IMG/VR virus record: IMGVR_UViG_2545824644_000012
Coordinates: 1 to 15,261 of that record
Length of the DNA stretch: 15,261 nt
Reading direction: 5' to 3' (one strand)
Source: a virus
Taxonomy: Duplodnaviria; Heunggongvirae; Uroviricota; Caudoviricetes
A program made the translations under genes and the position numbers. The notes below the pieces were generated by a model. That model ran no database searches, was not told where the DNA came from, and saw only the letters and a program-made list of their open reading frames with translations. Below, in pieces: positions 5,367 through 14,044 of the stretch. How positions within the stretch are numbered: position 1 is the first letter of the stretch; every line of letters begins with the position of its first letter.

Positions 5367-5654
5367 TTAAAGATTAGCGGGGAATTGTCGACGGGCGTGA
5401 ACCACGTTTACAATTTCAATACCTGAAGTTGTCACCCGGTACAAAATTATGTAATTGGGGTGAGCCACAATCTCGCGCAAACCTGGCACTCTGTCGCTTG
5501 GCGGATATAAATACGGATGTTCGGATAACGGCAGGACGCAAGCTCTTAAGCGTTGCCATAAGCGTTCTGCCGCATCTATGTCGAAACGGGCAATATAACT
5601 AGTTATATCATCCAGATCGGTATCTGCGCTTTCAAGCCATAACACGGGTAACAT
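5367..5654 (-). CDS. parE2: ParE/RelE-family type II toxin (ParE2-like)
   Basis: 95-aa ORF starting directly after the antitoxin stop (TAA-ATG); RelE/ParE-like size and sequence; partner of a PaaA2-like antitoxin. Confidence 0.8.
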   Translation of the reverse strand: MLPVLWLESADTDLDDITSYIARFDIDAAERLWQRLRACVLPLSEHPYLYPPSDRVPGLREIVAHPNYIILYRVTTSGIEIVNVVHARRQFPANL

Positions 5655-5846
5655 TTACTGCTCTCTCCGTTCCTTGCGAATTTTGGCAAAGCGTTCTGCC
5701 ATTCTGCGCTCAACTTCATCATGTGGAATAGCAGGACGTGGATCAGCAAGGCTTGCGGCTACTTTTGCGCGTAACCATTCGTTATAACTGTTTTCTTGCT
5801 CAACGGTTTCAAATTCAGAAACCATTGGTGAAAGGGCTGTATTCAT
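5655..5846 (-). CDS. paaA2: PaaA2-like antitoxin (63 aa)
   Basis: Using the internal Met gives MNTALSPMVSEFETVEQENSYNEWLRAKVAASLADPRPAIPHDEVERRMAERFAKIRKERREQ, near-identical to the recalled E. coli O157 PaaA2. AGGAGG 6 nt upstream of this ATG; the longer track ORF (to 5909) would overlap the repressor gene. Confidence 0.85.
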   Translation of the reverse strand: MNTALSPMVSEFETVEQENSYNEWLRAKVAASLADPRPAIPHDEVERRMAERFAKIRKERREQ

Positions 5847-5875
5847 GACATACCTCCTCTTACAGGTGGTAGAGA

Positions 5876-6277
5876 TTACGCTCGGTGCCCCTTTTGGGCT
5901 GCGATCCACCGAGCAACAGTTTCTTCCATTGACTTTTTCTTATTTTTTATTTCCTGAAGCATTTTTTCTTGGTCTTCATCGGGAAATGCACTAAAAGCTT
6001 GGAGCAATTCACGTTGGCGAGGGCCAATTTTCATCGTGTCAGGAGTAAAAATTTGCTCTCCCTCTTCTGGAGGTAATAAAAACCAATGTAGTGGATGCCC
6101 TGTAACCTCGACCAACTTATCTAAGCTGGAGGCTTTAGGTGTGGCTTTTCCACTGACCCATTGCTGAACAGTTTGCTGTGTCACACCGACTCTACGAGCA
6201 AGTTCAGCTTGGCTCCATCCTGTTTCTTTGAGGAGCCTGCTAATTCTGTACATAGATACTTCTAGGGCCTTCATCAT
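5876..6277 (-). CDS. paaR2: HTH (XRE-family) repressor, DicA/PaaR2-like; probable prophage repressor
   Basis: 133-aa ORF with helix-turn-helix (SQAELARRVGVTQQTVQQW); divergent from a Cro-like gene across an operator-containing intergenic region; immediately upstream of the PaaA2/ParE2 pair on the same strand. No Shine-Dalgarno upstream, so possibly leaderless like lambda cI. Confidence 0.7.
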   Translation of the reverse strand: MMKALEVSMYRISRLLKETGWSQAELARRVGVTQQTVQQWVSGKATPKASSLDKLVEVTGHPLHWFLLPPEEGEQIFTPDTMKIGPRQRELLQAFSAFPDEDQEKMLQEIKNKKKSMEETVARWIAAQKGHRA

Positions 6278-10745: not shown

Positions 10746-11303
10746 ATGAGCACTATTACCAGAGAACGCGCGGAGATTAAATCATACATCACAGGCTTCC
10801 TGAGCGACTCGGCGCACGATAACAAGTCTTCAGACAGCCTGCTGGCTAATGTGTTTCGTATCGCGCTGGCATCACTGGAAGCAGAGCCGATAGCAATGGT
10901 AGTGCCTGATGAAATGGATTTGCTTACCTGCCATCTCGACGGTGTAACTAAAACATATGCTGATGGCTGGAACGTCTGCCGCGTCGCCATGCTTCAGGCC
11001 GGAAACTTTCGGGAAAATAAGAATTCGTCAACCAACAATTTTCGGGAAATCTCGGAAACGTCAACCAGATCTCCGATAACTCCGGATGGCTGGATAAGCT
11101 GTACTGAGCGAATGCCTGAAAAGAGCCAGAACGTGCTTATTTCGATGAATATCGATAGCGAGGCAGGGCCATTAATATATTCCGCACGCTATCTCGGAGG
11201 CACGTTCCGGCGCGGAGGTATAGCAGTTAGTCCGGGTAATGATCTTAGGCAAGCAACCCACTGGATGCCGCTACCAGAACCGCCGCAGGAGGTGAATCAA
11301 TGA
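10746..11303 (+). CDS. DUF551-like phage protein
   Basis: 185-aa ORF with AAGGA Shine-Dalgarno; C-terminal pattern W.S..ERMPE...HWMPLPEPP recalled as typical of DUF551 proteins. Confidence 0.6.
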   Translation: MSTITRERAEIKSYITGFLSDSAHDNKSSDSLLANVFRIALASLEAEPIAMVVPDEMDLLTCHLDGVTKTYADGWNVCRVAMLQAGNFRENKNSSTNNFREISETSTRSPITPDGWISCTERMPEKSQNVLISMNIDSEAGPLIYSARYLGGTFRRGGIAVSPGNDLRQATHWMPLPEPPQEVNQ

Positions 11304-11383
11304 CCTGGCCTGAAGCATTCACAACGGTAGGAATTGCGATGGCGGTGGCGCTGGTGGTGTATTCGATTTGCCGCTGGGGATAA
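11300..11383 (+). CDS. Small hydrophobic peptide (27 aa), putative membrane protein
   Basis: MTWPEAFTTVGIAMAVALVVYSICRWG; ATG overlaps the DUF551 stop (ATGA) with GGAGGTG 7 nt upstream; below the track length cutoff. Confidence 0.35.
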   Translation: MTWPEAFTTVGIAMAVALVVYSICRWG

Positions 11384-11390
11384 AAACGGT

Positions 11391-11418
11391 TTGCGGGAAA
11401 AGGATAGTTAAGTAGAAT
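11391..11418 (+). promoter_or_regulatory. Candidate hok mRNA promoter (-35 TTGCGG, 16-bp spacer, -10 TAGAAT)
   Basis: Hexamers at 11391-11396 and 11413-11418; the predicted transcript 5' end (about 11420) coincides with a sequence complementary to the region downstream of hok. Confidence 0.4.
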
Positions 11419-11593
11419 TGCAGCGGGTGCTTGAGGCTATCTGCCTCGGGCATGAACACCAACGGCAGATAGAGAAAAGCCCCAGTTAACATTACGCGTC
11501 CTGCAAGACGCTTAACATTAATCTGAGGCTCAATCCATGCTGAACACATGTAGGTTAGCCTCTTACGTGCCGAAAGGCAAGGAGAAGCAGGCT

Positions 11594-11749
11594 ATGAAGC
11601 AGCAAAAGGCGATGTTAATCGCCCTGATCGTCATCTGTTTAACCGTCATAGTGACGGCACTGGTAACGAGGAAAGACCTCTGCGAGGTGCGAATCCGAAC
11701 CGGTCAGACGGAGGTCGCTGTCTTCGTAGACTACGAATCTGAGAAGTAA
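11594..11749 (+). CDS. hok: Hok/Gef-family type I toxin (HokD/RelF-like)
   Basis: 51-aa ORF MKQQKAMLIALIVICLTVIVTALVTRKDLCEVRIRTGQTEVAVFVDYESEK with the Hok signature; AAGGAG upstream. The in-frame upstream ATG at 11537 (track ORF) would add a 19-aa extension. Confidence 0.85.
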   Translation: MKQQKAMLIALIVICLTVIVTALVTRKDLCEVRIRTGQTEVAVFVDYESEK

Positions 11750-11756
11750 GAGACCT

Positions 11757-11816
11757 GGCGGGGGAGTAATCTCCCGCCACCTCTGATGTGTCAGGCATCC
11801 TCAACGCACCCGCGCT
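11757..11816 (+). other. hok mRNA 3' element: hairpin plus fold-back sequence complementary to the mRNA 5' end
   Basis: Hairpin GGCGGGGGAG-taat-CTCCCGCC at 11757-11778; 11799-11816 CCTCAACGCACCCGCGCT is complementary (one bulge) to 11420-11436 GCAGCGGGTGCTTGAGG, about 380 nt upstream. Confidence 0.5.
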
Positions 11817-11868
11817 TTACCATACTGAAAATGCTGTTTGAATGTTCATCTCTGAAAGAGGACTATGA

Positions 11869-12213
11869 ATGAAAAAGGTATTGATTGCAGCACTTATTTC
11901 CGGTGTGTCTTTTGGCGCTTTTGCACAGCAGGGTGGTTTCCAGGGGCCAGAAGCAGAGCGTTCAACAGTAGCGCAGGCAAAAGAACTGAAGGATGATGCA
12001 TGGGTTATCCTTGAAGGGAGCATCGTTAAAAAAGTGGGTGATGAACGTTATGAGTTTCGTGACAATAGCGGGACAATTGTCACGGATATTGATGACAGCG
12101 TATGGGCCGGGCAGAATGTTTCTCCTAAAGACAAAGTAAGAATTGAGGGTGAAATTGATAAAGACCTGAGCAGTGTTGAAGTTGATGTAAAGGCACTGAA
12201 ATTATTAAAGTAA
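11869..12213 (+). CDS. YgiW/YdeI (BOF) family periplasmic OB-fold stress protein, with signal peptide
   Basis: 114-aa ORF; signal peptide MKKVLIAALISGVSFGAFA; AGAGGA Shine-Dalgarno; recognisable BOF-family sequence; followed by an intrinsic terminator, i.e. moron-like. Confidence 0.8.
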   Translation: MKKVLIAALISGVSFGAFAQQGGFQGPEAERSTVAQAKELKDDAWVILEGSIVKKVGDERYEFRDNSGTIVTDIDDSVWAGQNVSPKDKVRIEGEIDKDLSSVEVDVKALKLLK

Positions 12214-12231
12214 CCGCCCCTGCTTGTTAAG

Positions 12232-12258
12232 CCCGTCTTACTGACGGGTTTTCTGTTT
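12232..12258 (+). terminator. Rho-independent terminator
   Basis: CCCGTC-ttact-GACGGG stem-loop followed by TTTTCTGTTT, directly after the YgiW-like gene stop. Confidence 0.55.
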
Positions 12259-12285
12259 GTACATTCCGGCGTATTGCCTTACAAT
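12257..12285 (+). promoter_or_regulatory. Candidate sigma70 promoter (-35 TTGTAC, 17-bp spacer, -10 TACAAT)
   Basis: Hexamers at 12257-12262 and 12280-12285, upstream of the 12335 gene and the DUF968-rusA-Q operon; a TGACA-N5-TGTCA palindrome follows at about 12308-12322. Confidence 0.4.
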
Positions 12286-12334
12286 TCGCGCAGTCAGCCT
12301 GAACAACTGACACCTGCTGTCACCGGAGAATCCG

Positions 12335-13658: not shown

Positions 13659-13670
13659 AAGAGGTGACTG

Positions 13671-14044
13671 ATGCTCATAGATTTGGTTTTACCTTACCCG
13701 CCGACGGTGAACACTTACTGGAGACGCCGTGGCAGCACATATTTTGTATCAAAAGCAGGGGAGCGTTATCGCCGGCAGTGGCGCTTATTGTTCGCCAGCA
13801 GCGACTGAAATTAAGCCTGTCCGGACGGCTGGCAATAAAAATTATTGCAGAGCCACCGGATAAGCGTCGTCGCGACCTGGACAATATTCTGAAAGCACCG
13901 CTGGATGCGCTGACGCATGCGGGAGTGCTTATTGATGACGAGCAGTTTGATGAAATCAATATTGTACGTGGTCAGCCAGTATCTGGTGGACGTCTGGGGG
14001 TGAAGATTTACCCCATAATGCTTGAAGGGCAGGTCAAAAAATGA
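13671..14044 (+). pseudogene. rusA: rusA Holliday-junction resolvase, apparently disrupted by a -1 frameshift
   Basis: From ATG 13671 (AAGAGG 6 nt upstream) the frame reads MLIDLVLPYPPTVNTYWRRRGSTYFVSKAGERYRR, matching the RusA N-terminus, then stops at 13806-13808. The RusA C-terminus (AVALIV...PDKRRRDLDN...) continues in the -1 frame to 14044. The shift maps to the G-run near 13774-13776. Confidence 0.65.

Follow-up and report, generated by a model that had tools for sequence, protein, structure and literature searches.

YgiW of Escherichia coli (b3024, PDB 1NNX; VisP in Salmonella) belongs to the BOF family, as do the periplasmic proteins YdeI/OmdA of E. coli and Salmonella and SipA of Vibrio cholerae, which are the source of functional inference for the protein considered here. 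YdeI/OmdA and SipA have been associated with tolerance of polymyxin, antimicrobial peptides, H2O2 and Cd, and with porin and peptide binding (PMC6370654). Morons of lambdoid phages, such as lambda bor and lom, are compositionally distinct extra DNA that lies among conserved phage genes and is expressed from a repressed prophage. Loci of the hok/sok type, such as R1 hok/sok and chromosomal hokD/relF, have a promoter, a tac/fbi fold-back, mok and hok reading frames and a sok antisense region, and in their canonical form a terminator lies right behind the fold-back. The hok mRNA is believed to be activated when its 3' end is trimmed back as far as the fold-back element, and the C-terminus of Hok faces the periplasm.

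We analysed a 15,261-nt stretch of DNA (the window) comprising the early half of a lambdoid prophage, with 100% identity to one inserted next to ompW in an E. coli strain of bovine origin. Its genes are ordered integrase, excisionase, exonuclease, dicB, relBE, repressor-type regulators, replication genes, DUF551, hok, a YgiW-like gene (here the BOF gene), a 90-aa ORF, DUF968, RusA and the Q antiterminator. The RusA-like ORF (126 aa, GTG start, 13664-14044, + strand) has an identical counterpart that RefSeq annotates as a frameshifted pseudogene. A RelE/RelB type II toxin-antitoxin pair is located in the immunity-proximal region (5367-5909, - strand), so that with hok/sok the prophage carries two toxin-antitoxin systems. 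The features of the hok-BOF region are listed in Table 1. We favor the reading, to which we assign a probability of roughly 0.6, that BOF forms the distal cistron in the hok/sok unit, is expressed in lysogens and provides them with a second, short periplasmic protein of the YgiW type.

Table 1. Positions of features in the hok-BOF region of the window.
Feature	Position	Strand	Details
Mobile block (small ORF, hok/sok, BOF, terminator)	11285-12260	+	~975 bp; common to phage 933W
Small hydrophobic ORF, 27 aa	11300-11383	+	MTWPEAFTTVGIAMAVALVVYSICRWG; ATG overlaps DUF551 stop (ATGA); putative gene
hok promoter and mRNA start	11391-11425	+	TTGCGG 11391-11396, 16-nt spacer, TAGAAT 11413-11418; start 11425
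hok mRNA leader/sok-complementary region	11425-11599	+	Rfam RF01794, 113.5 bits, E 1.6e-26
sokW antisense RNA	~11475-11545	-	Coordinates transferred from 933W annotation
mok reading frame, hok inside	11537-11749	+	Annotated mokW/hokW in 933W
hok toxin gene, 51 aa	11594-11749	+	Pfam HOK_GEF, E 4.3e-23
Two weak starts in hok 3' end	11737, 11751	+	EDL933 1901860, 1901874; assigned to BOF gene (PMC10469882)
hok mRNA 3' fold-back element (fbi)	11793-11811	+	Pairs with 5' end (tac); RNA fold
BOF-allele-specific leader	11822-11868	+	Holds Shine-Dalgarno; hokD-type loci without BOF homologous only to ~11821-11825
Shine-Dalgarno	11855-11862	+	AAAGAGGA; 7 nt ahead of BOF ATG
BOF/YgiW-family gene, 114 aa	11869-12213	+	ATG start; signal peptide and OB-fold barrel
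Intrinsic terminator	12229-12258	+	AAGCCCGTC-TTACT-GACGGGTTT and T-run; sole terminator downstream of hok promoter

The BOF gene product exceeds the curated cut-offs for its family. It matches Pfam PF04076 (BOF) with 115.1 bits (E 1.9e-33) against a cut-off of 25.8, TIGR00156 with 112.3 bits against 108.15, and NCBIfam NF033674 (NirD/YgiW/YdeI) with 136.8 bits against 35, which places it in the BOF family. By sequence it matches PDB 1NNX (E 3.5e-29), and the AlphaFold model, with a pLDDT of 83.9 and values above 90 over barrel residues 31-114, forms a single OB-fold beta-barrel (approximately residues 30-113) for which 1NNX is again the best PDB match (E 1.4e-11, target-normalised TM 0.91), followed by other OB folds. 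An earlier sequence-only reading had named the gene as a YgiW/BOF-family member with an OB fold and a signal peptide, and both the homology search and the model bear this out. The Sec-type signal peptide is read as MKKVLIAALISGVSFGAFA followed by QQGGF, and occupies residues 1-19 (11869-11925) with an MKK n-region, a hydrophobic core and a cleavage site between AFA and QQ. The mean Kyte-Doolittle hydropathy is 2.21 over residues 4-19 and -0.59 over the remainder. In the alignment with 1NNX, the start predicted for the mature protein coincides with the beginning of the YgiW chain. We therefore infer from these sequence features a periplasmic location for the protein.

Within the family, the protein falls below the threshold of the YdeI equivalog NF007471 (64.8 bits, with a cut-off of 179). 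Several properties of a YgiW orthologue are likewise missing, as there is no qseBC synteny, the length is 114 rather than about 130 aa, and the linker repeat is absent. Judged by sequence, it is a short-form YgiW paralogue and not an orthologue. Divergent BOF alleles have a dN/dS of 0.16-0.23 with dS up to 0.58, which indicates a protein-coding gene under purifying selection.

The locus upstream of BOF has the attributes of a hok/sok type I toxin-antitoxin system, with a Hok peptide, a sok/leader RNA, a 5'-3' fold-back and a constitutive hok promoter. The promoter hexamers were read from the sequence, and the mRNA start coincides with the beginning of the Rfam sok/hok-leader match. In a fold of positions 11425-11825 (-162.8 kcal/mol, z = -6.15) the first bases pair with the fold-back element. 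In the window and in all BOF-carrying alleles examined there is no terminator right behind this element, whereas one is present in hokD loci without BOF. Synonymous divergence between the same allele pairs is 0.06-0.07 in hok and 0.39-0.58 in BOF; the uniformity of hok could reflect either RNA-structure constraint, gene conversion, or recombination breakpoints between hok and BOF.

Comparison with a prophage of ETEC H10407 identifies the DNA that distinguishes these loci. This prophage is otherwise collinear with the window, and in it hok is located directly before the 90-aa ORF, DUF968 and RusA, with no BOF gene; its homology to the window extends to ~11825 and resumes just past 12260. In H10407 and in hok loci without BOF, the hok terminator (AACCCGCTTCGGCGGGTT-TTGTTTTT) directly follows the fold-back element, at the place where the window has a BOF segment of ~440 bp consisting of leader, ribosome-binding site, ORF and terminator. 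The G+C content of this insert is 43.5%, compared with 50-54% in the flanks. Because the insert stands where the hok terminator would be, a single terminator serves both hok and BOF, a GC-rich 9-bp stem (12229-12251) followed by TTTTCTGTTTG. It also bounds the shared block on the right in both 933W and the chromosomal allele. This terminator, a candidate for the original hok terminator, aligns loosely with that of H10407 hok, the alignment being gappy within the hairpin. A 14-nt direct repeat (11834-47/12253-66) was considered as a sign of a decayed duplicate hok terminator upstream of BOF and was rejected as not significant, since an equal or higher score was reached by 651 of 2000 shuffles and by 178 of 394 genomic controls. 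A search for a donor of the insert identified none among the matches listed; of these, the best from outside the prophage clade have 55-68% protein identity, and the nearest species-representative genomes (Ewingella, Rahnella) ~50%.

Transcript starts for this region can be taken from the orthologous locus of EDL933, at which the Hok, BOF and 90-aa proteins are identical to those of the window (window coordinates are the record coordinates minus 1,890,123). All expression data discussed here derive from the EDL933, 933W and Sp5 copies and not from the window itself, and EDL933 has at least two near-identical copies. Cappable-seq of EDL933 detected the hok promoter start (1901548, corresponding to window 11425) in 8/8 conditions, and a further 5' end at window 11536 (+), 1 nt before the mok ATG, also in 8/8 conditions (PMC10469882). 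The 5' end at 11536 is strong, lies inside the sok-complementary region and has no convincing promoter that we could read; it could arise by processing or mark a second start for hok. Starts within the BOF ORF at 12124/12126 were present in 7/8 conditions (PMC10469882), and a plausible TTGATG-17-CAGAAT promoter is located in the same region (12089-12126, +); they would give a ~130-nt RNA to the terminator, or a second start for downstream genes. Past the terminator, a start at window 12292 (EDL933 1902415) was observed in 8/8 conditions (PMC10469882), such that the 90-aa ORF/DUF968/RusA/Q region appears to be constitutively started in uninduced cells. A TGTACA-16-TACAAT promoter match lies directly after the terminator (12258-12292, +).

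These data bear on how BOF itself is transcribed. The sequence-only reading had proposed a self-contained moron between hok and the following operon, with its own ribosome-binding site and terminator, and in the classical form of this account the segment would also have its own promoter and be expressed independently of hok. Much of the description stood. The segment is extra DNA of atypical G+C content, absent between the same genes where they adjoin in the related H10407 prophage; it has its own Shine-Dalgarno and a hairpin and T-run behind the gene; it lies between hok and the 90-aa ORF/DUF968/RusA/Q genes; and published data on Z1498, the 933W copy of BOF in EDL933, show expression from the uninduced prophage, at an RPKM above that of the upstream neighbors. 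The claim that it is self-contained did not stand. A scan for sigma-70 promoters between hok and the BOF ATG gave no match, no convincing sigma-E-like or extended -10 promoter was seen by eye in the insert-specific leader, and none of the listed plus-strand Cappable-seq starts (PMC10469882) falls within this leader. The nearest mapped starts are within hok sequence. The authors of that study assigned two of them, 118 and 132 nt upstream, to BOF, but both are in hok sequence that is also found in loci without BOF, and they were detected in only 2/8 conditions, stationary LB and stationary acid (PMC10469882). An independent BOF promoter is thus possible only by way of these weak, stationary-phase-only starts. 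The terminator, moreover, is shared with hok, nearly every copy of the gene is accompanied by hok, and the block common to different genomic contexts comprises the small ORF, hok/sok and BOF rather than BOF alone. We therefore regard expression from a self-contained BOF unit as unlikely.

Both scanning and folding of the interval from the end of the fold-back element (11811) to the BOF ATG showed weak structure and no terminator, and the same terminator-less, promoter-less gap is found in alleles that are 17-19% divergent in protein sequence. As there is neither a terminator between hok and BOF nor a listed start in the insert-specific leader, we infer that the two are probably co-transcribed, drawing on this anatomy together with the published start-site and RNA-seq data.

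Published data show expression of the orthologous copies in lysogens. The protein encoded by Z1498 is identical to 933W L0136 (via UniProt A0A4P8BAV1), and strand-specific RNA-seq gave the gene an RPKM of 207 in LB, a value that may suffer from multi-mapping because EDL933 holds at least two near-identical copies; the neighboring late genes Z1493-Z1495 have RPKM values of 12-17, and Z1500-Z1503 on the other side 27-59 (PMC4048457). With trimethoprim/sulfamethoxazole the logFC of Z1498 was 0.4, compared with 5.1-7.2 for the 933W genes Z1433, Z1434, Z1441 and Z1501 (PMC4048457). In an Sp5 lysogen, hokW mRNA was seen prior to induction (PMC8621323). The Z1498 protein was found by mass spectrometry in EHEC supernatants and has SignalP class SPI (PMC12962677), although spontaneously induced cells could be its source, since these supernatants also contained Stx2B and late proteins of 933W. 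The sequence-only reading had held that a lack of expression in lysogens would count against a lysogenic-conversion gene, and such a lack is contradicted by the uninduced transcription of the near-identical 933W copy.

Taken as a distal cistron of hok/sok, BOF would be cargo embedded in a type I toxin-antitoxin locus and not an independent unit, the low-G+C ~440-bp segment having taken the place of hok's own terminator. Transcripts from the constitutive hok promoter, starting at 11425, would read through BOF and end at 12258 to give an RNA of ~834 nt, and the stationary-phase starts at 11737/11751 would add shorter BOF transcripts. Such read-through would make BOF in the repressed prophage, independently of induction. 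The protein would be exported via Sec, be cleaved after Ala19 and adopt the OB-barrel fold of YgiW in the periplasm; its ligands there, as for YgiW, YdeI and SipA, would be outer-membrane porins and/or cationic peptides. By homology with these proteins, a second, short-form YgiW would raise the tolerance of the lysogen to envelope, peroxide, metal or antimicrobial-peptide stress. The 450-nt 3' extension sits awkwardly with the 3'-trimming model of hok mRNA activation, and because of this poor fit most hok transcripts may be processed or end before BOF.

The unit shared among genomes is the larger block. Homology to 933W starts ~15 nt before the small-ORF ATG and stops exactly after the terminator T-run (12260/12261), and both 933W and Sakai prophage Sp5 carry the block with 98% DNA and 99.1% BOF protein identity. 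In 933W and Sp5 it is located at the attR-proximal end, at the other end of the genome beyond the tail genes, whereas in the window it is in the nin region. The 27-aa small ORF has no Pfam or PHROG match and no RefSeq annotation, and other hok-BOF alleles have a different 34-aa ORF at this position. Alleles with 81-83% protein identity keep the gene order and the single terminator, either in the nin region of another prophage or at a non-phage chromosomal site, so that the hok-BOF pair occurs in three contexts: the nin region, near attR (933W/Sp5), and the non-phage chromosomal site. At this last site, in E. coli drafts (L029-L032; ~3200-3850 in L029), a block of small ORF, hok and BOF with 81% protein identity lies between the cytochrome c peroxidase/cytochrome b562 pair and mrp-metG.

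The BOF gene is carried by 570 of 5426 complete E. coli genomes, and hok is contiguous with it in 551 of the 553 near-full-match BOF records from this species. This hok type is present without BOF in ~4,700 genomes. As hok is common without BOF and BOF almost never occurs without hok, loci with BOF of this type are a subset of hok loci, and the mobile unit is hok/sok plus its cargo.

The constancy of this arrangement raises the question of whether hok/sok and BOF form a functional three-part device, in which BOF has a part in killing or lysis timing and is neither a stress protein nor mere cargo. One form of this idea has the 450-nt BOF cistron alter the 3' maturation that arms the hok mRNA; in the other, BOF in the periplasm modulates Hok at the face exposed there, or acts on the envelope in Hok-assisted lysis. 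Across alleles with dS of 0.39-0.58, and in all three contexts, hok and BOF keep the same order and spacing and a single terminator. In addition, the hokW-sokW deletion in the literature (made with primers YO-351 and YO-352) retains the hok promoter and separates it from BOF by a kanamycin cassette, so the halved phage release reported for this deletion (PMC8621323) could partly reflect altered BOF expression. However, in the ~4,700 genomes noted above this hok type functions and is maintained with no BOF beside it, cloned hokW-sokW acts as a toxin-antitoxin pair without BOF, and hok is nearly invariant while BOF diverges, which gives no sign of co-evolution. Co-transcription and hitch-hiking suffice for the linkage, and we consider a three-part device to be quite improbable; if it were true, part of the hokW-sokW phage-release phenotype would belong to BOF. 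Under the distal-cistron reading, too, hokW-sokW deletion phenotypes in the literature may be confounded by BOF effects.

More distant BOF genes are found on other mobile elements. In E. coli VTB97432v (L039, 2847-3239) one is located at the end of a different prophage, past the tail-fibre genes and adjoining zinT, and another lies beside zitB on plasmid NZ_CP062843.1 (L038, 2376-2726); BOF genes are also present in Salmonella, Acinetobacter and Pseudomonas phage records. This suggests that the family has been captured repeatedly by mobile elements. These captures, together with the porin binding of the family (YgiW-OmpF, YdeI-OmpD and SipA-OmpA; PMC6370654), are consistent with a role in conflict between phages, in which the periplasmic protein would bind an outer-membrane protein used in infection and hinder superinfecting phages. 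Against this, the PADLOC defence models gave no match, a periplasmic binder is ill placed to block adsorption, and the literature search gave no experimental hint, such that the idea seems highly improbable to us.

A neutral passenger that hitch-hikes with hok/sok and Stx phages could likewise account for the linkage. A genome-wide association study linked 'ygiW_2' and a mokC-like gene to HUS (PMC11950266); these are probably a single hok-BOF block that marks stx2a phages, and linkage to those phages is the simplest explanation of the association. In one strain, E. coli RM10410 (L005, 3070-4639), IS1414 has inserted into BOF near its 3' end and truncates it, the final residues being replaced. 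Neutrality is nonetheless difficult to reconcile with the purifying selection on the coding sequence (dN/dS 0.16-0.23 over dS up to 0.58), with an ORF that is intact and 99-100% conserved in ~550 genomes, and with a gene that is expressed and translated, and we give it a very slight chance.

The preferred reading, that of a lysogen-expressed distal cistron of hok/sok, concerns a gene present in about one tenth of complete E. coli genomes, mostly of Shiga-toxin-producing lineages, and carried by the main Stx1 and Stx2 phages. BOF is among the few prophage genes with housekeeping-like transcription in uninduced cells, which makes it a reasonable candidate for a lysogenic-conversion trait, conceivably in envelope or antimicrobial-peptide tolerance in the gut. 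The gene itself is already known: it belongs to a well-known family, has been annotated since the 933W record, where L0136 is 'similar to hypothetical YgiW and YdeI', has been named by NCBI, and is L0136 in 933W, ECs1244 in Sakai Sp5, Z1498 in EDL933 and phrog_1230 ('unknown function'). Literature searches on the prophage copy (L0136, ECs1244, or ygiW with Stx, lysogen or prophage) yielded no functional test of it, the sole hits being the genome-wide association study and a secretome paper, and a phi24B transcriptome paper does not mention hok, mok or toxin-antitoxin. In the searchable literature we found no description of this gene's placement within hok/sok, at the spot where the hok terminator would otherwise be.

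Of the described proteins, YgiW is 47% identical to the prophage BOF overall and ~57% over the OB domain. The two share the Pfam/NCBIfam family, the fold (TM 0.91) and a signal peptide followed by a GGFxGP motif. They differ in length (130 aa for YgiW and 114 aa for the prophage protein, which lacks the 16-residue N-terminal linker bearing a second GGF repeat) and in context, as ygiW adjoins qseB/qseBC in K-12 whereas the prophage gene follows hok; the prophage DNA is too diverged to match chromosomal ygiW. YdeI is 37% identical, with the prophage protein below the YdeI equivalog cut-off, and the genes for YdeI and SipA are regulated by two-component systems whereas the prophage gene is apparently driven by hok-locus promoters. 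L0136 of 933W, ECs1244 of Sp5 and Z1498 of EDL933 are essentially the same gene in the same hokW/sokW-BOF block, and differ in location.

The hok/sok part of the window corresponds to R1 hok/sok and chromosomal hokD/relF in its promoter, tac/fbi fold-back, mok and hok frames and sok antisense region. It departs from the canonical arrangement in that a 345-nt ORF is interposed behind the fold-back and the terminator comes after this ORF. With lambda bor and lom the BOF segment shares the character of compositionally distinct extra DNA expressed from a repressed prophage; unlike those morons it has no demonstrable promoter of its own and rides on another accessory element. The hok-BOF locus is not a new kind of system, and BOF is an ordinary expressed accessory gene with a modest architectural twist.
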